A stretch of 64,000 bases of DNA from Candidatus Anstonellales archaeon (GTDB lineage: Archaea; Micrarchaeota; Micrarchaeia; Anstonellales; J096). This document shows, one piece after another, positions 6,211 to 57,089 of this stretch (position 1 is its first letter; each line of letters starts with the position of its first letter). Below the pieces are notes generated by a model. That model had not been told where the DNA came from, did not search any database, and was given only the letters and a program-made list of their open reading frames with translations. The DNA is taken from positions 64,001 through 128,000 of the forward strand of contig JAWAFD010000001.1 in the NCBI GenBank assembly GCA_038890745.1, given 5' to 3'. A program made the position numbers and the translations under genes.

Positions 6211-8018
6211 TGAAAATTACGCTTGAAAAAATAATTTTGGTGGGGCTGGTAGCTATCTATCTAATTATACTTCTTCCACACCTGGGCCAGCTTAAAACCC
6301 TTCCTTCCCCTCTCTACGGTGGGGATTACTACCATCAGATGGGACAAATCTATCACATGTATGAAACCTCTCCATTTGAATGGTTTGGAAGCAGTAATGG
6401 GCTTGGGGAAAGGCCGGGCTATTTTCCGATTTATGGAATTCTGGTGACTATTTTTGGGAAAATTTTTGGGTTGGAGCCGTTCTATGCTATGATCTATTTT
6501 AACATAATCGCACTGCCGGTTTCTGCGGTGGCGATTTTTCTACTGATAAACAAAATTTTCAAAAACGAAAGCATTTGTTTAACTGGTGTTCTGCTCTACC
6601 TCACCACTTACTCATTTCCGATATTTAAATATACTGAGTTCACAAAATGGGTTGTTGTTCCTGTGTTTTTTTATTTTTTGTATAAATTTTATGAAAAGAC
6701 AGAAATGAAAAACGCTATTTTTCTTGGATTGGCTTATGGAGTGATGGGGCTGAGCCACAGCACCGCTTTTATTTTTGCAACCCTCGCAATAGTTGGAATA
6801 GGAGCATACATATTATGGAAGAATAAAGAAATAAATGCAGCAATTACAGAAAATAAAAAAAATATTTTTGCAGCTTTGGTCTTGGGGTTTGTTATTTCGC
6901 AAATTTATTGGTTTGAACCTATATTTATTTATCATGGAAACAATGAATTGAAAAGCAATATATGGAGCCTTCCGGATTATGGAAACCTGGATTATATGGT
7001 AAGGACTGCGGTTGAGATGTTTGTTGATGTGTTTTTGAATTTTAACACTCTGATAGATGGAATTAGGTCGCTTGCGATAATATTCGGCTTTTATGTAATA
7101 CTCTCAAAAAAAGCATGGATTGAGAACGAGTTTATAATTATTGTCCTGGTTGTTTCGCTTGCACTTACCTATTCTTATTTTCTAACAATGCCTCTGATGG
7201 ATATTCACCTAGTTCCAGGATATTGCGCGGACCTCTACCTTAAATTTTCCGCGCTGCTTATAGGAATGGTTGGAGTAAAAGAAGTTTTTGAAAAATATGG
7301 GCAGAACAAAATAATTACTTATTCTGCGATTGCTATTCTTATGCTTCTTTCAATAATCCAAATGGCTGAGATTGTAAAAAATAAGGAAAATGAGCAATGG
7401 TTTTCGGTTGGAAAAGACGAGTTGCCAGTGTATGTGGAGGAAATGCAAAAATGGGTTTTGAAAAATACAAATATAAACGATGTAATTTTAACAAGTAATG
7501 AAATTGGTTTTGAGGTGAATGCGCTTACTGGAAGAAAATTGGTTGTTTCAAGAAGGGCGCAGAACGATGCGTTTATGCAGGATTTTGATAGAAGGCAGAT
7601 GGATGCGGCAATAATTCTTTATGGAAACAATGATGAAAAACGAAAAGAACTGCTGAGAAAATATAACGTCAAATATGTATACTATGAAGCGACCTGGCCT
7701 GGAAGCGAGTTTTATTTTGATGAAACCGGAAAATTGACTGGATATTTTGACCCCTTGATGGTTGTTTACTCTGAAGAAAAGGAAAACGAGCTAAAAAGGT
7801 ATGGTGTAAAATATTTTAGGATTAGGGGATGGCTGGATCCCGCGGTGCGTGGGATTGATGTGAGGATGTATGATTTGCTTATTGTTTCCCCGGAAAATTA
7901 TGATGATGGTGGGTATGGAATTTGGAGCGATGAATTGGACAAATATTTGGAAAAGGTTTGGAGCTACGAGCAAAATGGAATTTTGTATGGAGCAATGTAT
8001 AGGGTAAATATGGGTTAG
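6210..8018 (+). CDS. Polytopic membrane protein, possibly GT-C-fold glycosyltransferase
   Basis: N-terminal TM then GGDYYHQ acidic loop, multiple TMs, soluble C-terminal domain (ELLRKYNVKYVY). Confidence 0.5.
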   Translation: MKITLEKIILVGLVAIYLIILLPHLGQLKTLPSPLYGGDYYHQMGQIYHMYETSPFEWFGSSNGLGERPGYFPIYGILVTIFGKIFGLEPFYAMIYFNIIALPVSAVAIFLLINKIFKNESICLTGVLLYLTTYSFPIFKYTEFTKWVVVPVFFYFLYKFYEKTEMKNAIFLGLAYGVMGLSHSTAFIFATLAIVGIGAYILWKNKEINAAITENKKNIFAALVLGFVISQIYWFEPIFIYHGNNELKSNIWSLPDYGNLDYMVRTAVEMFVDVFLNFNTLIDGIRSLAIIFGFYVILSKKAWIENEFIIIVLVVSLALTYSYFLTMPLMDIHLVPGYCADLYLKFSALLIGMVGVKEVFEKYGQNKIITYSAIAILMLLSIIQMAEIVKNKENEQWFSVGKDELPVYVEEMQKWVLKNTNINDVILTSNEIGFEVNALTGRKLVVSRRAQNDAFMQDFDRRQMDAAIILYGNNDEKRKELLRKYNVKYVYYEATWPGSEFYFDETGKLTGYFDPLMVVYSEEKENELKRYGVKYFRIRGWLDPAVRGIDVRMYDLLIVSPENYDDGGYGIWSDELDKYLEKVWSYEQNGILYGAMYRVNMG

Positions 8019-35682: not shown

Positions 35683-36534
35683 ATGTTTGATGCCCTTATC
35701 CCTATCTGTGATGCTGATAGATGCTTCCATTCACTAAGCGAGCAGAAAAATTATTTTAGAGTAAATACATTAAAAAATTCAGTAAAAGAATTCCTCTCCT
35801 CCTCTTCAATTCAAGTCGAAAAAACTCCGCTTCCGTTCGCTTTTTCTTCCCCCAATCCAATCGGTAGAACAGTGGAAAATTTTCTTGGCTATATCCATAT
35901 CCAATCCCTTTCTTCAATGCTTCCAGCGCTTGCGCTTTCTCCGCATAAAAATGACATTGTTTTAGATGCGTGCGCATCGCCAGGCTCAAAAACCACTCAA
36001 ATGGCAGCCATGATGGGTAATGACGGCGCGATAGTTGCAAACGATAGAAAAAGTCGCCATCCTCCACTTCTTGCTAACATCTCCCGCTTAGGTGTTCTTA
36101 ATACTGTTGTTGTTTCTTATGATGCAAAAAAATCAATAAAAGAAAATTATTTTACAAAAGCGCTTTTGGATGCCCCATGCACCGCACTTGGCGCGTGGCA
36201 GAGCGCCTGGAAAAGGTTTAAGCCAGATATAGCAAAATCCATGGCCAGGGTGCAAAAAGCGATGCTGCTCTCTTCTTTTGACTCCCTTAAACCTGGCGGA
36301 ATTCTTGTATATTCTACCTGCACCTATACAAAAGAAGAAAATGAAGAGGTTGTTAGATTTTTGCTGGAAAGAAGGGAGAATGCAAGGTTAGAAACGATCA
36401 ACATTCCTTATGAAATTCCTCATGAAACAGGTTTGAGCGAGTTTGGGAATGAGTTTAGGAAGGTATGGAGGGTATACCCCTGGCATCTTAAAAGCGAGGG
36501 GTTTTTTATTGCAAAGGTGAGAAGGGATGAATGA
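35683..36534 (+). CDS. RsmB/NOL1/NOP2 RNA m5C methyltransferase, paralog 1
   Basis: LDACASPGSKT, DAPC, YSTCT, EGFFIA. Confidence 0.9.
   Translation: MFDALIPICDADRCFHSLSEQKNYFRVNTLKNSVKEFLSSSSIQVEKTPLPFAFSSPNPIGRTVENFLGYIHIQSLSSMLPALALSPHKNDIVLDACASPGSKTTQMAAMMGNDGAIVANDRKSRHPPLLANISRLGVLNTVVVSYDAKKSIKENYFTKALLDAPCTALGAWQSAWKRFKPDIAKSMARVQKAMLLSSFDSLKPGGILVYSTCTYTKEENEEVVRFLLERRENARLETINIPYEIPHETGLSEFGNEFRKVWRVYPWHLKSEGFFIAKVRRDE
36266..36520 (+). repeat. 255-bp tract, inverted near-identical copy at 49422-49676
   Basis: Direct comparison gives 5 substitutions over 255 bp. Confidence 0.9.
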
Positions 36535-36934
36535 ATTTGAGGGATACATAAAAGAGAGGTTTGGGATAGTTCTACCTGATTGGGTAGTTGTCGAAGAGGT
36601 TGGGGATAAATTTAGGATAATGAATAAAGAGATAAGCAAAGAAAAACCAAAAAATTTTGTTTCGCGCGGGATTGTTTGCGGGAAGAAAACAACTTTTGGG
36701 GTAAAGCCAACATCAGACTTCATTCAGCTTTTTGGCCATCTTGCAAGAAAAAATGTTGCTAAGATAAGCAGAGAAGAGATGCTCAATTATGCGAAGGGAA
36801 TGGATTTGGAGAGAGAGTTCGATTTTGAAAATGGGTATGTTGTTTTGAGGTATGAAAAACATAGTGTAGGGGTTGGGCTTTGCATGAATAAAAAAATAAA
36901 AAATCAGGTGGCGAAAATTAAGCGGATCCAATAA
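36527..36934 (+). CDS. NIP7/PUA-like methyltransferase accessory protein
   Basis: KPTSDFIQLFGHLARKN..YAKGMDL..GYVVL; follows the methyltransferase gene. Confidence 0.7.
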   Translation: MNEFEGYIKERFGIVLPDWVVVEEVGDKFRIMNKEISKEKPKNFVSRGIVCGKKTTFGVKPTSDFIQLFGHLARKNVAKISREEMLNYAKGMDLEREFDFENGYVVLRYEKHSVGVGLCMNKKIKNQVAKIKRIQ

Positions 36935-41016: not shown

Positions 41017-41059
41017 CCAACCACCCCTTTCCCTAGCCGCTTATGATATATTTAAAAAT

Positions 41060-41083
41060 TTGTTGTAAAAATATTTACAACAA
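41060..41083. promoter_or_regulatory. Inverted repeat, likely TrmB-family operator
   Basis: TTGTTGTAAA-aata-TTTACAACAA between divergent genes, 1 bp before the TrmB ATG. Confidence 0.7.
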
Positions 41084-41084
41084 T

Positions 41085-41807
41085 ATGAAAGTAGAAGAAG
41101 TTTTGCAGAATTGCGGGCTCTCAAAAAATGAGGCAAAGATATACCTCGCCCTTCTTCAACTAGGCTCATCAAAAGCAGGAAAGATCTCAAAGCTGGCGCA
41201 GATAGACAGAACATCTACCTACAACTCGCTTAAGCTTCTAATAGAGAAAGGACTCGCAAGCTATGTGATTGTGGGGAAGGTTAGATGGTTTCAGCCGGCT
41301 TCTCCTGAAAAACTCCTTATACTCACTGATGAAAAAAGAGAAGGGTTAATGAAGGTCATGCCATTTTTGAATGCAGAGTATAAAGAAAAAAAACTTGAGG
41401 AGAATGTAAGGCTTTTTAAAGGATTGAGGGGGATAAGGACCGTTCTTGAAGATATCCTAAACGAAGGAAAACCAAACCTTGTTTTCGGGTCTGAGGGCCA
41501 GCTTGAAAAAAACATGCCTGCCTTTGCCCAAAGGTTTGTGCATATGCTGAAAAAAAGAAAAATAAAGGTAAAAAGTTTGGTGAGGGAAGGAAGGCGGGAT
41601 GTTTCCTCAAAAACAGCAGAGGTAAGATTCGTTCCGAAAACAGTAAAATCAAATGTTGTTACGAATATTTACGGAAACAAAATTGCAATAGTGATATGGA
41701 GCAAGACACCAGAAGCGATACTGATAGAAAACAAAACAGCCGCTGAAGCATACAGAAGCTATTTCTGGTTTATGTGGGAGAGGGCGAAAAGGAAACATGC
41801 CCATTAG
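41085..41807 (+). CDS. TrmB-family transcriptional regulator
   Basis: GLSKNEAKIYLALLQLG..RTSTYNSLKLLIEKGL; C-terminal IYGNKIAIV domain. Confidence 0.9.
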   Translation: MKVEEVLQNCGLSKNEAKIYLALLQLGSSKAGKISKLAQIDRTSTYNSLKLLIEKGLASYVIVGKVRWFQPASPEKLLILTDEKREGLMKVMPFLNAEYKEKKLEENVRLFKGLRGIRTVLEDILNEGKPNLVFGSEGQLEKNMPAFAQRFVHMLKKRKIKVKSLVREGRRDVSSKTAEVRFVPKTVKSNVVTNIYGNKIAIVIWSKTPEAILIENKTAAEAYRSYFWFMWERAKRKHAH

Positions 41808-41810
41808 TAT

Positions 41811-41867
41811 TTTTGTTGCCATATGGAAACAAAAATATAGCAATTTTATTTCCATTTGGAAACAAAT
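41811..41867. repeat. Tandem 24-bp palindromes abutting the ATPase stop codon
   Basis: TTTTGTTGCCATATGGAAACAAAA-9bp-TTTTATTTCCATTTGGAAACAAAT; 41842-41866 identical to 43122-43146. Confidence 0.85.
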
Positions 41868-43060
41868 TAAAAAAGAAGACCGAAAATGTAGAGTGGGATT
41901 TCATCAGATGCAACAGAAAGCGACTCTTTTACAATAAAAGACCACCCACTCCCACTGAGCTGGGAAGCACTTTTGCTTCTTCCCCCTATTTCAAAAATAT
42001 ACCCATCCACATAATAATCTGGCACCTTTTTACCAGTTTCTCTGATGTACTGTGCATGCCCTACGTGATGGATGAAAAAGTCTTCTCTCAATGCCCCTTT
42101 TTCTATGGAAACTCCAAAATACTCCCCAAGAGAATTTCTGATGGAAAGCGGGAGCATAACCTTACTCTCTCCCAGTATAGATTTATGCCCACTACCGTGC
42201 GGGGGGAGTAATGTAATCAATCCACTTATGGAGAGTAAGCGCATGAGCTCTATTGTGAACTTTACTGAGCGGCCAATAGAGTTTGCAACCGAATTGTAGC
42301 TTATTTCTCCTGGTTTTGAGGATGCTATAAACTTTAGAAGCCTAAATGCACTATCTATATACCCAGTGTCTATACTTTTTAGGGAAAGAAGATCATGGTA
42401 CACAACCCGCTCTATTATTCCTGGGTAAACGTCCTTTCCTTCAAAAAAAGCAGCAGGTAGACCGTAATGGTTGACAAACTCAGGATACAAACTAATGAAT
42501 GGAGCCACCTCCCTTGAAACCTCTACCCGTTCTTCAATAAGTTCCTTTATCGTTCTTTTTCTAAGCAGTGTTTTAGTTTTGAAATAGATATATTCCCGAA
42601 ATGAAAATGGCCTTAGCTCGCTTATACATATTCTCCTTGCTAAGTCCGAGGAGCGTGCAGCGATATCAATTGCAGAGGAACCGGTAATGATGATCTTTGT
42701 TCTGCTCTCATCATAGAAAAGTTTTATATCTTTAGGCCATTCTTTTATGACCTGTATCTCATCTATGCCAAAAGTAGTAAATCCCTGGGTGTATGCATAT
42801 GAAAGGGTTTCGTAGAGATCATAACCATGCTTGAGAAGGAACTCTGCATTTATGTACATAGCTTTTTCATATTTCTTTAATATGTGTATGAGCAACGAGG
42901 ATTTGCCGACCCCCCTAAGCCCCTTTATCGCCGAGATAATTTTTTGTTTTTTTATGCTCTCTTCTAACTCCTGCGATGCAGGCCTGAGCACATCCACTGC
43001 CTTTTCCCTACAAACTTTTTCTGAGTAAGATAGGAGTCTCGTGAAATCGTTTTCGTCCAT
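41867..43060 (-). CDS. AAA_14-type ATPase with HTH-like and C-terminal PD-(D/E)XK-like regions
   Basis: GLRGVGKS, IDEIQ, TGSS, PFSFREY, PDY..FEIGGRSK. Confidence 0.85.
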   Translation of the reverse strand: MDENDFTRLLSYSEKVCREKAVDVLRPASQELEESIKKQKIISAIKGLRGVGKSSLLIHILKKYEKAMYINAEFLLKHGYDLYETLSYAYTQGFTTFGIDEIQVIKEWPKDIKLFYDESRTKIIITGSSAIDIAARSSDLARRICISELRPFSFREYIYFKTKTLLRKRTIKELIEERVEVSREVAPFISLYPEFVNHYGLPAAFFEGKDVYPGIIERVVYHDLLSLKSIDTGYIDSAFRLLKFIASSKPGEISYNSVANSIGRSVKFTIELMRLLSISGLITLLPPHGSGHKSILGESKVMLPLSIRNSLGEYFGVSIEKGALREDFFIHHVGHAQYIRETGKKVPDYYVDGYIFEIGGRSKSASQLSGSGWSFIVKESLSVASDEIPLYIFGLLF

Positions 43061-43091
43061 ATAAAAATAATGGGCATTCTGCTTATAAATC

Positions 43092-43147
43092 TTTTGTTTT
43101 CTCTAGGAAATAAAAAACTTAAATTTTATTTCCATTTGGAAACAAAA
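43092..43147. repeat. Tandem 24-bp palindromes upstream of the ATPase TATA-like box
   Basis: TTTTGTTTTCTCTAGGAAATAAAA-8bp-TTTTATTTCCATTTGGAAACAAAA. Confidence 0.85.
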
Positions 43148-43161
43148 TCCTGCAAGATGGC

Positions 43162-45543
43162 TCATACCTCCCAGTATTTTCTTGTTTTCAAAAATGTTTT
43201 TTGTGCCTCTATTAGATCAACCCAAAAACCAAACTCATCCTTATGTAGCCTTCTCAATATTCTATCTGCTGTTTTTGCGCCGACACCAAAAACAGTTAAA
43301 GCAATGATCGCTTTTTTTCCATATGCACGTGTAAGGTTTGCGCGATATTCTAACTCTTCTTTGTCTGCTTTTTCTGAATAAAGGGTCAGAGGAGAACCGC
43401 ACCTGTGGCATTTTGGCATTTCCTCAACCCTTAGGATCGTTGTAAATCTTGTCGCCCCGCAATTGACGCAAATAAGTTTTACATCCTGGCTTTCAACAGC
43501 ATTTTTGAACGCCTCTATCCTTGCGCTCTCTGGTAAAAACTCAATAGGAAGAGGCCTGGAGAACCTATCAACAATTTTTATATCTGGAACAAAATCAAAA
43601 TTAAAATCAAAATACCTTTTTGCTTCTTTCACTGCCTCCTCATAAACAATCGACCCTTTAAAGAATTTTGCAAGCCTCGGGTTGAATGGCGTGTCCTCTT
43701 TCAAAATACCAAACCTTCTTGCAACATGCGTGAATTTTATGGAAAAGATAAAGCTATCCTCTATTGATTTTTCTGCGAGAGCCCGGATGTTGTATTTCTT
43801 TATTTTATGGATGTGCTCGCCAAGAGGAAAGGGAAGCTTTAGAATTATTCTATAAGCATCAGAAATTCCGTTTGCTTGCTCACCTGTAAGTTCCTCCACT
43901 GCTTTTTTTAAACCGGCCAGGATTGCGTTATTTGCGATCGTTCCTTGACAGGAGTAGTATACCAGGATATCTTCCTTCTCTTCTCCAAAAAGCTCTTTAC
44001 ACACTGTTTGGGCAACTTCTTTACTTACAGGAAGGTCTTCCCCTTTCCATACCGGAACGGTTAGGGCGGCTGAAGAGAGAGGGATTACCTTTATTTCTTC
44101 CTCTAAGCTCGCTACCTGCCACGGTCTTCCTTTTAATATGAATGAATCACCCTCGGATAGTTGGGATGCAAATTTTTCATCTACATGTCCGATTATTGTT
44201 CCGGTTTGAGCTTCTCTGACTGAAAAATATATCTCTTTTGGAATGGTTGAAACATTGTCAAAGTAGTACTTTTTTCCCTTTAAAGTGGCTTTTATTGTTC
44301 CATCCTCATTTAAAAAAATTACATTATTTTCTTCTAAAAATTGTGCAATAATTTTACTTTTTTCAAATGAAAGAGTATAGATGTGCGATTTCTTGAGAAT
44401 TTCATGAACCTTAGTGAAGGGTATTTTTGAAAAAGCAAGCCCAACTATTTGATGGGCTATAACATCGAGCGGGGAGGTATATTCCTTTTCTTCTTCTATC
44501 CACCCTTCCCTTGCTTTTTTTATTATTCCCTCGCTTTCCTTCCTTTCCTCTTCATTCCTTGCGATTATTATTGCCCTTGAAACCTGCCTTAGGGAATGGC
44601 CGCTCCTTCCCATTCTTTGCAGGAATCTACTCACTTGTCTGGGCGAGCCGATCTGTACTACAAGGTCAACATCCCCTATATCTATTCCTAGTTCAAGGGA
44701 AGAGGTTGCGACAATGGCCTTTAACTCGCCCTTCTTAAACTTTCTTTCAGCCTCTTCTCTAATCTTTCTGGAGAGAGAGCCGTGATGAACAAAAGCAAAA
44801 TCAGAGAATAACGAACCGTAAAGCTCTGCCTCGCTTCTTGTGTTCACAAAAATCATTATTTTCTGTTTTTCTGCGAGCGATCGGACAAATTCTTTTATTT
44901 TTTCATCCCCGTATATTGGCTTTACCTCTGCTTTCCACTCTTTCTCCCCTCCTGAAACAACATCGTAATTTTTTCCGTTGAATATCAACTCTGCTTTTTT
45001 TGGGGAGGAGAGGGTTGCGCTAAGGCCGATGGTTTTGAAGTCTGCAAGCTCAGAAAGCCTGGCAAGCCCAAGGGATAGCTGGCTCCCCCTTTTACTGTCA
45101 ACAAGCTCATGTATCTCATCCACTATAACCCATCCAACATTCCTCAGATGCTCCTTGAATTGTGGAAGAACAAGAAGAATTTGAAGGGTTTCTGGGGTTG
45201 TTATGAGCACATGTGGCGGGGATTTTGCCTGTTTTGTCTTTATTTTTGCCGGCGTGTCCCCATGCCTAACCTCTATTCTTATTCCGGCAGCATTCCCCCA
45301 ATAAATAAGCCTTTCTTCCATATCTCTATTCAGGGCTCTTAATGGGGTTATGTACAGTGCTGAAATGGGTTGCTTCTTTTGGATTGCTATTTGCTCAAAA
45401 ACAGGCAGAACCGCGGCCTCTGTTTTTCCTGCTCCTGTAGGTGCTACGATTAAAACATTCCTTCCACTAAGAATAAGCGGGATGGCTTTTTTTTGTACCT
45501 CTGTTGGCTCTTTAAATCTCTCAAGGAATGCTTTTTCTAACAT
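43162..45543 (-). CDS. Lhr-like DEAD/DEAH helicase
   Basis: APTGAGKT, RHGDT, DEIH, SAT, ELGIDIG, QRMGRSGH, C-terminal CxxC pairs. Confidence 0.9.
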   Translation of the reverse strand: MLEKAFLERFKEPTEVQKKAIPLILSGRNVLIVAPTGAGKTEAAVLPVFEQIAIQKKQPISALYITPLRALNRDMEERLIYWGNAAGIRIEVRHGDTPAKIKTKQAKSPPHVLITTPETLQILLVLPQFKEHLRNVGWVIVDEIHELVDSKRGSQLSLGLARLSELADFKTIGLSATLSSPKKAELIFNGKNYDVVSGGEKEWKAEVKPIYGDEKIKEFVRSLAEKQKIMIFVNTRSEAELYGSLFSDFAFVHHGSLSRKIREEAERKFKKGELKAIVATSSLELGIDIGDVDLVVQIGSPRQVSRFLQRMGRSGHSLRQVSRAIIIARNEEERKESEGIIKKAREGWIEEEKEYTSPLDVIAHQIVGLAFSKIPFTKVHEILKKSHIYTLSFEKSKIIAQFLEENNVIFLNEDGTIKATLKGKKYYFDNVSTIPKEIYFSVREAQTGTIIGHVDEKFASQLSEGDSFILKGRPWQVASLEEEIKVIPLSSAALTVPVWKGEDLPVSKEVAQTVCKELFGEEKEDILVYYSCQGTIANNAILAGLKKAVEELTGEQANGISDAYRIILKLPFPLGEHIHKIKKYNIRALAEKSIEDSFIFSIKFTHVARRFGILKEDTPFNPRLAKFFKGSIVYEEAVKEAKRYFDFNFDFVPDIKIVDRFSRPLPIEFLPESARIEAFKNAVESQDVKLICVNCGATRFTTILRVEEMPKCHRCGSPLTLYSEKADKEELEYRANLTRAYGKKAIIALTVFGVGAKTADRILRRLHKDEFGFWVDLIEAQKTFLKTRKYWEV

Positions 45544-47583: not shown

Positions 47584-47659
47584 ACAAACCCCTGAAATAA
47601 TTGGGCGGTTAGGTTTTTAAATATTTATATTCATTCGAGCGCTCTCTCCTCAAATTAAT

Positions 47660-48982
47660 TTATAAAAACTTCTCCATGTCCTTTAAATCAAAAAGCAGAA
47701 TGCCAGGTTCTTTGAATTTTTCTTTAAAGCTTTTTGCGAATATAACATAGGTTTGTTTTTTACTTGGCCAATCAACGCACCTTGCCTTCTCCTTCAACTC
47801 GGTAAAAATAATCCTCGCATTAACCCGTTCCTGCCACTTGCACTCTGCAAAAAGGATCTCTCGTGTCCGCTCATTTAACCCAACGATATCTATCTCTTTG
47901 TCTTTATGCCACCACTTTCCAATCTTTGTTAGATTAAACATTCTCATTTCCAATAGGAAGTCCTTACACACATCCTCAAAAGATTTGCTGGTATATGTGT
48001 TGAGCTCCTGTTTAACTAAATTTAAAACTTCTTTCTGTAAGCCCTGTTCCAGCATAGATCTGTTTTTGAAAATAAATTTGAACCAAAACTTGTAGAAATT
48101 ATCCTTGATTTTGTATCTGGTTGTTTTTGCTTTTAGTTTCTTTTCAGTTACCGGGATCTCCTTTTCTATGAGACCTACTCTTTCCAAAATCAACAAGTAT
48201 TTTGGTAATTTATAAGTTTGGATTTTACTGAATCCAGCTATTTCAGCAAATTTTACATACCCATTTGTTATAGCTGAAAGTATGGAGGCGTAGGGTGCAG
48301 GGGCCCTAAACTCTTCAAACAGAAGATTGAATGGTTCGTGGTATAAAAAAGAGGTTCTATCCAAGATCTTCCTTTTAATATTCTCCTCAATACTTAATTT
48401 TGAGTCGAATTCTTCCAGGTATCTAGGAATCCCACCTAAGATTGAGTAAACTTCACCAAGCTGCTTAGCGTTGTACCCTGGAAAAAAGTCTTTTATGAAC
48501 TTAAATCTTAGCGGTAGGATATGCATTTCTGCAGTCTTTCTGCCATAGAGAGGAGAACCATAACCCATCGCAATCTTGTATATCGTTGAGATTATCGAAC
48601 CGCAAAGAATTATTTTTTTGTCAGTCTCCTTTATCTTTTCCTACCATCTCTGTGCTATCGTAGGCCAGGCTTTATTGACCTGGTACAAATACTGGAACTC
48701 ATCAATAATTATGACCTTGTGCTTACTCCTATAAAGAAACTCAAAAAAATCATCCCAAGTGTTGAATCTTACAAATTCTCCTCTTATTTGATCTGAAAGA
48801 ACATCTAGTATGTTTTCTGATACATCCGCCAGCAGATAGAGCGCACCTGTTTTTTTAGCAAATTCAACCAAGAGTCTACTTTTTCCAACCCTACGCCTAC
48901 CATAAAGCAAAACAAGCTCAGCCTTCTTTGATGTCGCAAGCTCTAGCAACCTACCAAGCTCTTCCTCCCTATCAATAAACAT
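47660..48982 (-). pseudogene. Archaeal ATPase (ATPase_2/DUF234-type) with in-frame TAG at 48641-48643
   Basis: FIDREEEL, GRRRVGKS, IIDEFQ, QRW*EKI..ILCGS..PLYGR, EIDIV..ECKW; both halves in the same frame. Confidence 0.85.
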
Positions 48983-49006
48983 TATCATAATAATCATTAT
49001 CGTAAT
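48981..49006. promoter_or_regulatory. Tandem quasi-palindrome over the ATPase start
   Basis: ATTATCATAAT-aatc-ATTATCGTAAT between the TATA-like box and the start codon. Confidence 0.5.
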
Positions 49007-49057
49007 CCTGTTTTTAAAACTTTGGGTTTGGGCCCCTCGCATAAAAGACTCTTTCTA

Positions 49058-49417
49058 CTATGACCTGTTATTGTATCCAAAAGCAACACCGACCGGTCTG
49101 GCATTAAAAAAAGCAATGTAATACTCACCGATTACGCGATTTTTCATTTTTATTTTCTTGTTTTTGATAATTTTTCTCGCCTCCTCTTCTGAAATATTGA
49201 TCCTGTTTTTTGTAGCCAGATGACCAAATGTTCTTGCGAAAGAATGTGTTGGTTTGTTTGTGTAAACCAAAATCCCGCGCCTACCTTTGATGTCTATTGA
49301 CATTAATGATTTTGAAAACGCCCTTATCCCTTCTTTCTTTTCCTCAAAAACAATGTTTTTTGGAAAAACGATTCCGAATTTTTCATAAACAAATTTTTTG
49401 AATTCATTTACTCGCAC
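49058..49417 (-). CDS. NIP7/PUA-like accessory protein, paralog 2
   Basis: KPTHSFARTFGHLATKN, similar to 36527-36934. Confidence 0.65.
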   Translation of the reverse strand: MRVNEFKKFVYEKFGIVFPKNIVFEEKKEGIRAFSKSLMSIDIKGRRGILVYTNKPTHSFARTFGHLATKNRINISEEEARKIIKNKKIKMKNRVIGEYYIAFFNARPVGVAFGYNNRS

Positions 49418-50283
49418 CTGATCACCTTTGCAATAAAAAACCCCTCGCTTTTAAGATGCCAGGGGTATACCCTCCATACCTTCCTAAACTCATTCCCAAA
49501 CTCGCTCAAACCTGTTTCATGAGGAATTTCATAAGGAATGTTGATTGTTTCTAACCTTGCATTCTCCCTTCTTTCCAGCAAAAATCTAATAACCTCTTCA
49601 TTTTCTTCTTTTGTATAGGTGCAGGTAGAATACACAAGAACCCCGCCAGGTTTAAGGGAGTCAAAAGAAGAGAGCAAAATCTGTTTTTGCAAACCAGAAA
49701 TTTTTAAACTATCCTTAACCTGCCATTTTGCGTAAGCATATGGAGAAGAGCCCAGACCAGAGCATGGTGCATCAACCAAAACAAAATCAAAATACCCTGG
49801 CTTCAAAAGTTTTGTTCCGCTTCTTTGCGTTATTATTGTATTCAGTACCCCAAGCCGGTTTATATTATTTACAAGCGCGCTTATCCTCTCGATCCTCACA
49901 TCGTTTGCATAAATAATCCCGGTATTCTTCATCATCGCAGCCATCTGGGTTGTTTTTGAGCCTGGCGCTGCGCAAACATCATAAACCTTAGAGCCAGGTC
50001 TAGGGTTCAAAACGACGGGCGGAAGCATGGACCCTAAACTCTGAGTATGTATGTATCCTAAAAAATACTCTATCGTGTTCCCAAGCTTTATGTTTTCATC
50101 AAAAACATAGAAAGCATTCTCAAAAACAGCCCTTTCCAATTTCAACCGGCTGAATTCCAAAAATTCATACACGTTTGTTTTTATTTCATTCACCCGGATT
50201 GTTGGTTTTATGTTGAGCAAAAATTCATTTGCATCCTCTCTTGTAAAGCCCGAAAGCCAACCTTTGTATTCAGAATATTCCAT
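49408..50283 (-). CDS. RsmB/NOL1/NOP2 RNA m5C methyltransferase, paralog 2
   Basis: DVCAAPGSKT, DAPCSG, YSTCT; start placed at MEYSEY. Confidence 0.9.
   Translation of the reverse strand: MEYSEYKGWLSGFTREDANEFLLNIKPTIRVNEIKTNVYEFLEFSRLKLERAVFENAFYVFDENIKLGNTIEYFLGYIHTQSLGSMLPPVVLNPRPGSKVYDVCAAPGSKTTQMAAMMKNTGIIYANDVRIERISALVNNINRLGVLNTIITQRSGTKLLKPGYFDFVLVDAPCSGLGSSPYAYAKWQVKDSLKISGLQKQILLSSFDSLKPGGVLVYSTCTYTKEENEEVIRFLLERRENARLETINIPYEIPHETGLSEFGNEFRKVWRVYPWHLKSEGFFIAKVIRCE
49422..49676 (-). repeat. Inverted copy of 36266-36520
   Basis: Reverse complement matches with 5 substitutions. Confidence 0.9.
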
Positions 50284-50334
50284 AAGAATAGAATAAAAAC
50301 AAAAAATTAAAAACAATCTGTAGCATGTTCTTTT

Positions 50335-50712
50335 ATGAAAGAGTTTTTTGTTCAAACAAAAAAACAGGTTGAGGCAATCGATATAACGCACGAAATAGAG
50401 GCAAGAATAGAAAAGAATGCAAAAGCATGTTTGGTTTTTGTCCCGCACGCAACCGCGGCTATAATACTAAATGAGTATGAACCAAACATAAAAAGCGACT
50501 ACGAGAAATTCTATTCCGAGCTTGCGAAGGGGGATTGGAGGCATAACTCCATAGACAATAACGCAGAGGCTCATCTCCTCTCCTCGCTCGTGAAGCCATT
50601 CGCGCTAATTCCATGCGAAAACGGAAAACTTATGCTCGGAACATGGCAGAGGGTTATGCTTCTTGAGTTAGATGGGCCGAGAAGAAGAAAGATTACACTA
50701 ACCACGCTGTAG
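50335..50712 (+). CDS. yjbQ: YjbQ family (UPF0047) protein
   Basis: PHATAAIILNE, NAEAH, LGTWQRV..ELDGPR. Confidence 0.92.
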   Translation: MKEFFVQTKKQVEAIDITHEIEARIEKNAKACLVFVPHATAAIILNEYEPNIKSDYEKFYSELAKGDWRHNSIDNNAEAHLLSSLVKPFALIPCENGKLMLGTWQRVMLLELDGPRRRKITLTTL

Positions 50713-55693: not shown

Positions 55694-55743
55694 TTCCGCT
55701 CTACCGACCAAAATCAAATAAAAATGGTCGCTGGAGCGGAATT
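55694..55743. repeat. 50-bp hairpin-forming direct repeat (3' flank of the ATPase)
   Basis: TTCCGCTCTACCGACCAAAATCAAATAAAAATGGTCGCTGGAGCGGAATT, identical to 57040-57089. Confidence 0.95.
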
Positions 55744-57007
55744 AAACCGAAAGCGCAAACAAAGGAATGGGGATTCGCTCCTTCGATATTGTTTCATCCA
55801 TGCTGAGTGTGAGTATGCCTTCTCTTGATTTCTTTCCTTTCCCTCCAACCTCTATTCGCAGCCCGTTGGCTATAAAATCTACTTCATGGCTGTAGAAAAT
55901 CGCGCCAGATAGCGATAAGAGATGCCGAAATACTGAATCCTCTCTAAGATTTCCTGTTATCTCTGCGCTGCTTACTATGGGTAAAGCAAGGATATACCGC
56001 ATAGATGGTGAATAAAAAAACCATTTCTTTGGCTTCTTGAACATCCTACCCCTTCCTTGGTATTCTATCCCTTTGATTATCATCCCATTTTCAAATACCT
56101 CAAGCAGCTTTCCAATACTTTCTTTTGATACACCTACAACTTCAGAAAGGGTAGTCAGCTTAACAGCATCCGCAGGAATGGTTGAAAGATACTTTATCAG
56201 CCTCTCTGCTGCGGTCAGCATCCTTGTTTCAAATTTTTCATATCTGGAAAAATCTTCATATATAGTTCTTTTCACGATTTTATTTATTCCATCAGCATAC
56301 GCATGCTCATCAAGTCTGAGTGCGGCCGGTAGGTCATGGCGCATGTATTCATCATACAGCGCAAGAAGATTATATGGGCCAAGTAAAGAAAGTACTCTCA
56401 GGTATTCCTCATCAAGATTTTTTTTCCCGAGATTTTTCCGTATGCTTTTGGATATCTCATCAGGTATTACTATTCCATATCTAAGCATTAGGTATTCTCT
56501 GAAAGAGAGGGGGTGTACCTGAAGCTCGTATGCCCTTCTGGTTAGCTCTGTTGTTTTTCTGAGCGGAAGGGCGGATGAAGAGGTTGCGATTATAACAAGG
56601 TTTGGCCTTCTATCATGAAGGACTTTAAGGTGGATATCCCATTCAGGAAGATAGGTTATTTCATCCAGGAGGAGTAGAAATTTTTTGCCTAACCCGACCC
56701 TCTCCTTTTTTATATAATCTAACGCTTCGAGAGCATGGTTGAGTGTTATCCCGCGCGATATAAGCTCATCGCATGAAAAATAAGCCTTTTCCCCTGCTGT
56801 TTCATTGAAAAGCTGGTATAACCCCGTAGTCTTTCCTGTACCCCGTAAACCAGTGAGAATAAATACACGTTGCCCGCTTCTCGCAACTGCCGCTCTTAGT
56901 TCATTAACAAAGCATCTTTTGGACTTCACATTTTTAAGCTCTTCGGCGATTATTTTTGGAGTTTCTGCCAGTGTGTTCAACACAAACCTCTTTATTATTT
57001 CGGTCAT
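55742..57007 (-). CDS. AAA_14-type ATPase with HTH-like and C-terminal PD-(D/E)XK-like regions
   Basis: GLRGTGKT, LLDEI, TSSS, PLSFREY, EVDF..IEVGGKGK; start placed at MTEII. Confidence 0.85.
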   Translation of the reverse strand: MTEIIKRFVLNTLAETPKIIAEELKNVKSKRCFVNELRAAVARSGQRVFILTGLRGTGKTTGLYQLFNETAGEKAYFSCDELISRGITLNHALEALDYIKKERVGLGKKFLLLLDEITYLPEWDIHLKVLHDRRPNLVIIATSSSALPLRKTTELTRRAYELQVHPLSFREYLMLRYGIVIPDEISKSIRKNLGKKNLDEEYLRVLSLLGPYNLLALYDEYMRHDLPAALRLDEHAYADGINKIVKRTIYEDFSRYEKFETRMLTAAERLIKYLSTIPADAVKLTTLSEVVGVSKESIGKLLEVFENGMIIKGIEYQGRGRMFKKPKKWFFYSPSMRYILALPIVSSAEITGNLREDSVFRHLLSLSGAIFYSHEVDFIANGLRIEVGGKGKKSREGILTLSMDETISKERIPIPLFALSV

Positions 57008-57039
57008 AGGAGTATTTTGGAGTACCACCTTTATAAGGT

Positions 57040-57089
57040 TTCCGCTCTACCGACCAAAATCAAATAAAAATGGTCGCTGGAGCGGAATT
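57040..57089. repeat. 50-bp hairpin-forming direct repeat (5' flank of the ATPase)
   Basis: Identical to 55694-55743; immediately upstream of CTTATAAA on the minus strand. Confidence 0.95.

Follow-up and report, generated by a model that had tools for sequence, protein, structure and literature searches.

A single ATPase gene in the genome of a Candidatus Anstonellales archaeon lies between two copies of a paired-palindrome site, varies in presence between strains, and travels together with its site to unrelated loci. Full, solo-site and site-free alleles are found, and the two site copies of an element change in concert. On balance we favour the reading that this is a one-gene cassette whose likely own operator doubles as its likely recombination end; binding of the site, circular forms and insertion are what we infer from these patterns. 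The window is the 64,000-nucleotide stretch analysed, part of a 989,524-bp Micrarchaeota-type genome (G000), and coordinates refer to it unless a contig of G000 or another genome is named. Its features at the cassette and at a paralog are:

41043..41807, plus strand: trmB-family regulator (host), convergent neighbour, lhr-adjacent in G001 and G002
41811-41834 and 41844-41867: palindrome units of the downstream flank, 9-bp spacer, 33-bp period
41811..41867, unstranded: downstream two-palindrome site, the copy retained in the sister-strain empty allele
41842..41866, unstranded: 25-bp stretch identical to 43122-43146, the interval in which full and empty alleles cross over
41842..43121, minus strand: 1,280-bp unit missing from strain X4 (contig joint 41841 to 43122)
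41867..43060, minus strand: 397-aa AAA_14 ATPase of PDC-S01/COG1373 type, by domain, PADLOC and structure matches
41870..42145, minus strand: residues 306-397, predicted PD-(D/E)xK-fold domain, from the fold model and conserved residues
42224..42277, minus strand: residues 262-279, comprising the turn and the recognition helix as predicted from the model
43082..43089, minus strand: TATA-like box TTTATAAG, 2 bp past the upstream site and 21 bp ahead of the ATG
43092-43115 and 43124-43147: palindrome units of the upstream flank, 8-bp spacer, 32-bp period
43092..43147, unstranded: upstream two-palindrome site, predicted operator
43162..45543, minus strand: lhr helicase (host), upstream neighbour
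55694..57089, minus strand: second AAA_14 cassette, with ATPase 55742-57028 and repeats 55694-55743 and 57040-57089

Four 24-bp palindromes, two per flank and each self-complementary at 18-22 of 24 positions, bracket the ATPase gene. The last base of palindrome 41844-41867 is also the last base of the ATPase stop codon, and the TATA-like box has no second copy downstream. This arrangement had been described in the first-pass annotation, and the palindromes, their spacers, the 25-bp identity, the site against the stop codon and the site near the TATA box are all present. With up to 3 mismatches the site consensus matches four times in the window against 0.00 expected (100 shuffles), which rules out chance, and the rest of the genome holds no further copy at the same threshold; as the consensus was built from the four copies themselves, the informative part is the lack of additional ones. 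An assembly artefact is likewise ruled out: single contigs of run X1 cross the entire unit without a difference.

Flank against flank, the full site of about 56 bp is identical at 44 of 56 positions, and the identity is uneven: the first half agrees at 25/25 positions and the second half differs at 12/31 (Fisher p 0.0005, an optimistic value since the split was picked after seeing the data). In this the copy is atypical, and the mosaic suggests that recombination took place recently within the first unit; the flanking repeats of relatives are 47-66 bp. The repeats are direct, scoring 25 against 16.5 for inverted repeats at the cassette, and 59 against 17.5 in the homolog L001. AAA_14 is the sole domain found in the 1,280-bp unit, which contains no transposase or recombinase, and GC content (0.38-0.43 versus about 0.40) does not mark it as an insert. 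The sequencing runs containing the region are hot-spring metagenomes, with no RNA dataset among the runs listed.

The 397-aa protein matches AAA_14 at 77.4 bits against a cut-off of 27, and 7/7 of its PADLOC matches are to the phage-defence candidate PDC-S01 (best E 7.4e-24, residues 26-334), an assignment that goes by E value. Walker A (GLRGVGK, 47-53) and Walker B (DE, 100-101) are invariant in 115 homologs, and the closest titled homologs are from Candidatus Micrarchaeota. Pfam DUF4143 gives no match in this protein at E 0.01 and 22.7 bits in the 55742 paralog (cut-off 28.1); PF13635 is precomputed for many homologs at 25-33% identity. An NCBIfam search returned nothing above cut-off and a PDB sequence search no close relative (best E 6e-6). 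The two ATPases of the window are 25% identical over 381 columns (E 1e-21), and their alignment contains all three motifs that had been claimed as common to them.

The structure model, built from the 115 homologs, has a pLDDT of 90. Its closest solved folds are SSO1545 and PAB2304 (2fna and 2qen; Z 16.5 and 16.4), and its top Foldseek rows are Cdc6/Orc1 and CED-4 with low TM-scores (2qby, E 4e-8). From the secondary structure and the SSO1545/PAB2304 alignments, residues of about 232-305 are predicted to form a winged helix. Folded alone, the C-terminal 92 residues match VRR_NUC (Z 7.4, rmsd 3.0, 72 aligned), and the other structural matches are mostly what we take, from their titles, to be restriction-fold proteins, at middling Z; Foldseek matches of this domain are weak, none with E < 0.001. 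Within it E326, D348 and E357 are invariant in homologs and K363 is kept in 90% or more. A homodimer prediction scored 0.00, was uninformative and was given no weight. The likely role of the ATPase is that of a cargo serving either as a candidate anti-virus defence or in selfish persistence.

The site-bounded unit is absent from a sister strain. In run X4, about 2% from the window, a 5,094-nt contig joins 41841 to 43122, skips 1,280 bp and retains exactly one complete two-palindrome site. Twenty-five letters fit both sides of the joint. Its shorter side is 187 letters long, takes in the remaining site and shows 13 differences. This solo allele is one contig from one run of the same study as the window's likely source, and an earlier alignment of the X4 contigs to the window did not list it. 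The allele is compatible with excision and with a target not yet filled, and cannot tell one direction from the other. Neither the strain variability of the unit nor its solo site figures in the first-pass annotation. The comparison covers contigs of runs X1-X4, X5 having given small pieces only; none of the X1-X4 contigs is listed with a circle or tandem junction, though contigs lose rare forms and so cannot prove them absent.

A third state is found in G001 and G002, two other species of the genus, where lhr and trmB are adjacent and nothing at their junction matches the site unit below 8 mismatches. The comparison of synteny without the insert that had been proposed for this locus gives a site-free junction, so that the site arrived with the gene. 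A search of G000 turned up no solo site for the elements surveyed, and two strict patterns found none in 401 and 201 genomes, the latter set being without G001.

Close homologs carry the site with them. L001 (79% identical) and L002 (70%) have unrelated gene neighbourhoods, away from TrmB, and related sites at both ends, and in L001 the final 10 bases of the gene itself stand ahead of the upstream copy; a homolog at 59% has a related upstream pair only. The possibility raised at the outset, that homologs might lack paired flanking sites, is thus not what the close homologs show. The strict two-unit pattern has 3 matches in 2 of 401 genomes, all flanking ATPases.

A family survey drew on 84 ORFs (best-match loci and the own genome), one a window-overlap artefact, with two duplicate loci dropped beforehand; the final set is 83 loci in 32 genomes. 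Direct repeats score at least 18 in 44/83 loci and at least 36 in 37/83 (16 genomes), and these 37 are not independent since three genomes supply 18 of them. The higher score is reached by 33/61 loci in the clade near the 397-aa protein and 4/22 in more distant clades, and the homologs on viral contigs, all of them distant, have no repeats (0/22). Among the ORFs of 300-500 aa in G000, 9/265 score at least 18: five AAA_14, three ATPase_2 and one other. Each element is single-copy in its genome.

The repeat is specific to the element. The best match of each upstream site is its own downstream flank in 37/37 cases, while the median score between elements is 8, and the 12 of 1,332 pairs that reach 36 are all listed close relatives. 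A layout common to the family with gene-specific sites, extrapolated in the first-pass annotation from two instances, therefore extends to these 37 of 83 loci. In 30 of the 37 elements the repeat is the TATA-adjacent palindrome pair, with both units spanned (7 left out); in these the core is 95% identical, the spacers agree at 281/301 positions (93%), and identity in the flanks decays to near background over roughly the first 10 bp beyond the repeat. Their downstream copy starts between 33 bp before and 27 bp after the stop codon. The palindrome spacers differ between close relatives despite the match within each element, and in 8/8 nearest-relative pairs similarity is higher between the two copies of an element than across elements. 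An upstream palindrome pair is present at 38/83 loci versus 5/120 controls, with a period of 31-33 in 36 of the 38; 39/83 loci are without a downstream copy, and 20 of these still have the upstream pair. Two family members, L015 and L070, duplicate non-operator, host sequence.

Some cassettes of the family stand back to back (G000 C5:10325-12987; also L016, L017, L054, L062 and L064). In this clade the downstream site codes for the last residues of the protein, and changes in it are mirrored in the upstream copy.

The 55742 cassette has 50-bp identical repeats; at the corresponding site G001 and G002 have neither the cassette nor the repeat. A 60%-identical relative with its own matched repeats lies at another locus of G002; the same locus contains a single degenerate site without a gene in G001, and a different ATPase cassette in G000. 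The junction (G000 C2:218.6-219.8 kb, G002 C28:44292-45694, G001 C11:9339-9384) thus holds an ATPase_2 cassette, an AAA_14 cassette and a degenerate solo site, respectively, and is an apparent hotspot for cassettes. Read depth over the 55742 cassette versus its flanks (6.9 vs 9.6-11.4 in X2, 7.5 vs 11-11.8 in X4) is given no weight, as depth is no share of cells.

Bracketing repeats are also seen in other gene families of G000. Three ATPase_2-winged-helix genes each lie between their own tandem palindromes of 17-bp period, and one of these cassettes has an empty locus in G001 that is without the site. Four nucleotidyltransferase-HEPN-type pairs are bracketed by 26-39-bp direct repeats that resemble host promoters or gene ends:

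G000 C1:9485-10700: ATPase_2 cassette, with an extra upstream copy
G000 C1:308193-309358: ATPase_2 cassette
G000 C2:218601-219761: ATPase_2 cassette
G000 C4:2266, C4:101939, C5:51347 and C5:84005: nucleotidyltransferase-HEPN-type pairs

Pfam finds no nuclease domain in the three ATPase_2 cassette genes, which keep the layout; the element's nuclease is therefore not needed for the footprint. The repeat of the pair at C4:101939 is a host gene end, present as a single copy at the empty G002 locus. These host-sequence duplications, with those of L015 and L070, raise the prospect that one general host route makes both kinds of footprint, and such a route may underlie several of them.

Other observations were made in passing. 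A split ATPase_2/DUF234 gene (PADLOC PDC-S27) at 47660-49042 has a stop between its two ORFs and no flanking repeat that we could find, and in X4 the stretch 47623-49084 is swapped for 36 other bases. Two genes on opposite strands, 35683-36934 and 49058-50448, which we take to be methyltransferase-like, are nearly identical over their C-terminal 70 residues, each then followed by a similar small gene. G000 also has an array with a 38-bp repeat, CRISPR-like, at C3 about 34.1-35.5 kb, and dispersed short repeats of 50-100 bp (L209:1980-2080 and 6516-6576) have many copies in G001 and G002.

Does each protein evolve with its own site? Site similarity follows clades in the family, and similarity over residues 262-275 correlates with site similarity when tree distance is allowed for (r 0.30, from pairs that are not independent). 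The co-evolution of winged helix and site proposed in the first-pass annotation fares well with ten-residue windows, where residues 262-275 rank first of 184 (48/61 operators kept), but with eight-residue windows the recognition helix drops to ranks 4 to 9 of 370, with 116-126 ahead of it (47 operators), and the signal is suggestive only. The related claim that each paralog has a site of its own holds for the full site (own copy best in 37/37) and not for its core. In a metagenome scan with the site pattern, which gave 62 loci, a TTTCC-N4-GGAAA pair with 33-bp spacing precedes distant AAA_14/DUF4143 paralogs at 13/62; one contig (2 loci) is a close homolog, 47/62 loci have no family member, and none looked like a solo copy of the cassette site.

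The metagenome loci include two further patterns. Paired TTGCC-N4-GGCAA palindromes 33 bp apart, in high-GC sequence, in many cases enclosing a TTGAC-like hexamer and without an ATPase nearby (L148, L152, L153, L158-L161, L165, L167, L180, L184, L188, L190, L193, L195 and L199), are probably operators of some bacterial regulator. Loci L141, L144, L178 and L186 have four or more tandem 33-bp units with TTTCC-N4-GGAAA, and no long ORF was found beside these arrays.

The mechanism that we propose has three steps. The winged helix would bind both palindromes, 32-33 bp or three helical turns apart, and the bound protein would repress the promoter of its own potentially toxic predicted nuclease. A crossover between the two site copies, probably by way of host recombination enzymes, would then free a 1,280-bp circle in which stop codon, site, TATA box and start codon are joined intact, or alternatively would amplify the unit head to tail. 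Such circles or arrays would be the travelling form, re-entering a solo site by a single crossover and a new locus as a site-gene-site piece with ends set by the footprint of the bound protein; this would explain why an element's two copies resemble each other more than they resemble the copies of its relatives. Against this operator-end reading, no datum accounts for the first copy entering a site-free locus.

A broader proposal, which we put forward tentatively, is that DPANN archaea harbour recombinase-free, one-gene mobile elements in which the operator of a STAND-like ATPase-winged-helix protein serves as both switch and terminal repeat. The protein would pair the copies, the element would cycle via a one-site circle, and matched ends would be regenerated at each insertion. 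If so, at least two ATPase families would belong (PDC-S01 and the nuclease-less ATPase_2), and one of the commonest 'defence candidates' would have to be seen as a mobile element, its helix-operator pairs forming a natural library.

Other explanations have to be weighed against the operator-end reading. The downstream copy could be an auxiliary operator, acting through a loop or roadblock, with ordinary horizontal transfer, gene conversion and accidental deletion accounting for transfer, matched copies and solo sites. The repeat does coincide with the operator footprint, one layout is common to two ATPase-winged-helix families whose operator geometries are unrelated, and the mosaic of 25 identical and 31 divergent bp resembles a conversion tract. 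We nevertheless think this explanation unlikely, given that spacers are 93% identical within elements yet different between close relatives, that about half of the loci manage without a downstream copy, and that the gene-end bases before the L001 upstream copy point to a stop-site-promoter junction. A new autonomous transposon is less probable again: here the element's own nuclease would nick the one-site circle at the site edges and join it to a target, and fill-in would duplicate the site. In its favour, the repeats end sharply at the operator, a PD-(D/E)xK-like fold has conserved acidic residues and a lysine, and no site is required at the target; the three ATPase_2 cassettes, however, show the layout without a nuclease domain, every element is single-copy in its genome, and PD-(D/E)xK enzymes generally hydrolyse DNA and do not carry out strand transfer.

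Long target duplication, in which a break is repaired with the incoming gene and the resident target is doubled, as for restriction-modification genes, is quite improbable here and already contradicted for the first insertion. The X4 footprint fits it formally, with two copies where the gene is present and one where it is not; cases of 45-47 bp with no mobility gene are described in PMC2853133; and host-sequence duplications occur both in G000 and in the AAA_14 family. The cassette repeat, however, is not host DNA: two congeneric genomes lack it where lhr and trmB adjoin, it accompanies homologs at unrelated loci, and empty loci of the 55742 cassette and of one of the ATPase_2 cassettes likewise have no site. 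Next to no credence attaches to the palindromes being TrmB sites, chance matches or an assembly artefact. The trmB gene stops 3 bp from the downstream site, and binding by TrmB had been raised as grounds for rejecting the initial proposal; but trmB orthologs (88% identical) are without palindromes, ATPase homologs with sites lie elsewhere with no trmB, and the site is missing at the congeneric junctions, so that TrmB is not the binder; chance and artefact fail on the 0.00 expected matches and the X1 contigs spanning the unit. Copying by reverse transcription, in the manner of an LTR, was rejected, as the downstream copy usually ends before the TATA box and the unit has no reverse transcriptase.

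The operator-end reading concerns a family that is already catalogued (PDC-S01/COG1373) but uncharacterised. According to PMC12988326, PDC-S01 ranks fourth in frequency among the defence systems and candidates of prokaryotes (9,986 detections in archaea, 29,494 in bacteria), and most PDCs (defined in bioRxiv 10.1101/2024.01.29.577857) await validation. Other sources describe DUF4143/COG1373 as PD-(D/E)XK of unknown function (PMC3424549), COG1373 as one of the horizontally shared genes (PMC10782964) and DUF4143 as REase (bioRxiv 10.64898/2026.10.19.760177), and an AAA+-HTH-RecB-nuclease arCOG is listed for the variable islands of archaea (PMC4158269). In the literature covered, which took in few subscription papers, we came across neither operators nor operator-bounded cassettes described for PDC-S01/COG1373. 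The layout had been noted at the outset as one not recognised as described; this holds for the cassette, which we did not find in print, and not for the protein family. The operator-bounded form of a known family, with a conspecific solo-site allele, is apparently undescribed.

The locus supplies a predicted binding site for PDC-S01 together with full, conspecific solo-site and congeneric site-free alleles, and so makes it testable what PDC-S01 binds and how lone defence genes that lack recombinases travel through small genomes. Dozens of natural helix-site pairs offer a route to a specificity code.

Several known systems share parts of this design. SSO1545 and PAB2304, archaeal STAND-like proteins of the ATPase_2 family, align with the ATPase and winged helix of the cassette protein (Z 16.5, rmsd 3.5, 253 aligned; Z 16.4, rmsd 4.2, 256 aligned) but have no C-terminal nuclease-like domain, the alignment ending at 312-313 of 397; ATPase_2 genes of G000, from the same Pfam family, have the same cassette layout. 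Cdc6/Orc1 initiators also combine AAA+ with a winged helix and have binding sites (ORB boxes) beside their own gene, although the TM-score is low (0.32) and the cassette ATPase has an additional nuclease-like domain. In contrast to insertion sequences and DNA transposons, the cassette has no transposase, a direct-repeat score above the inverted one and one copy per genome, and unlike integron cassettes and dif modules its elements have no recombination site in common (median cross-score 8). PDC-S01, as presented in PMC12988326 and PMC3424549, has the same AAA_14 ATPase fused to a PD-(D/E)xK-type domain, whereas the cassette protein has no Pfam DUF4143 match at E 0.01. The closest parallel in layout is with the restriction-modification genes of Furuta, Abe and Kobayashi (2010; PMC2853133), which likewise lie between direct repeats of about 45-60 bp with no transposase or integrase, leave a single repeat copy at the conspecific empty allele, and have been proposed to undergo repeat-driven amplification and release; that survey kept no archaeal case. 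Set beside the more than 30 bp expected of such repeats, the cassette has 25 identical bp, and 44 of 56 over the site, and its relatives have 47-66 bp. The cassette consists of a single ATPase gene with no methyltransferase; and whereas the restriction-modification repeat is host target DNA, that of the cassette is the site beside its own TATA box, which the empty loci of congeners lack.
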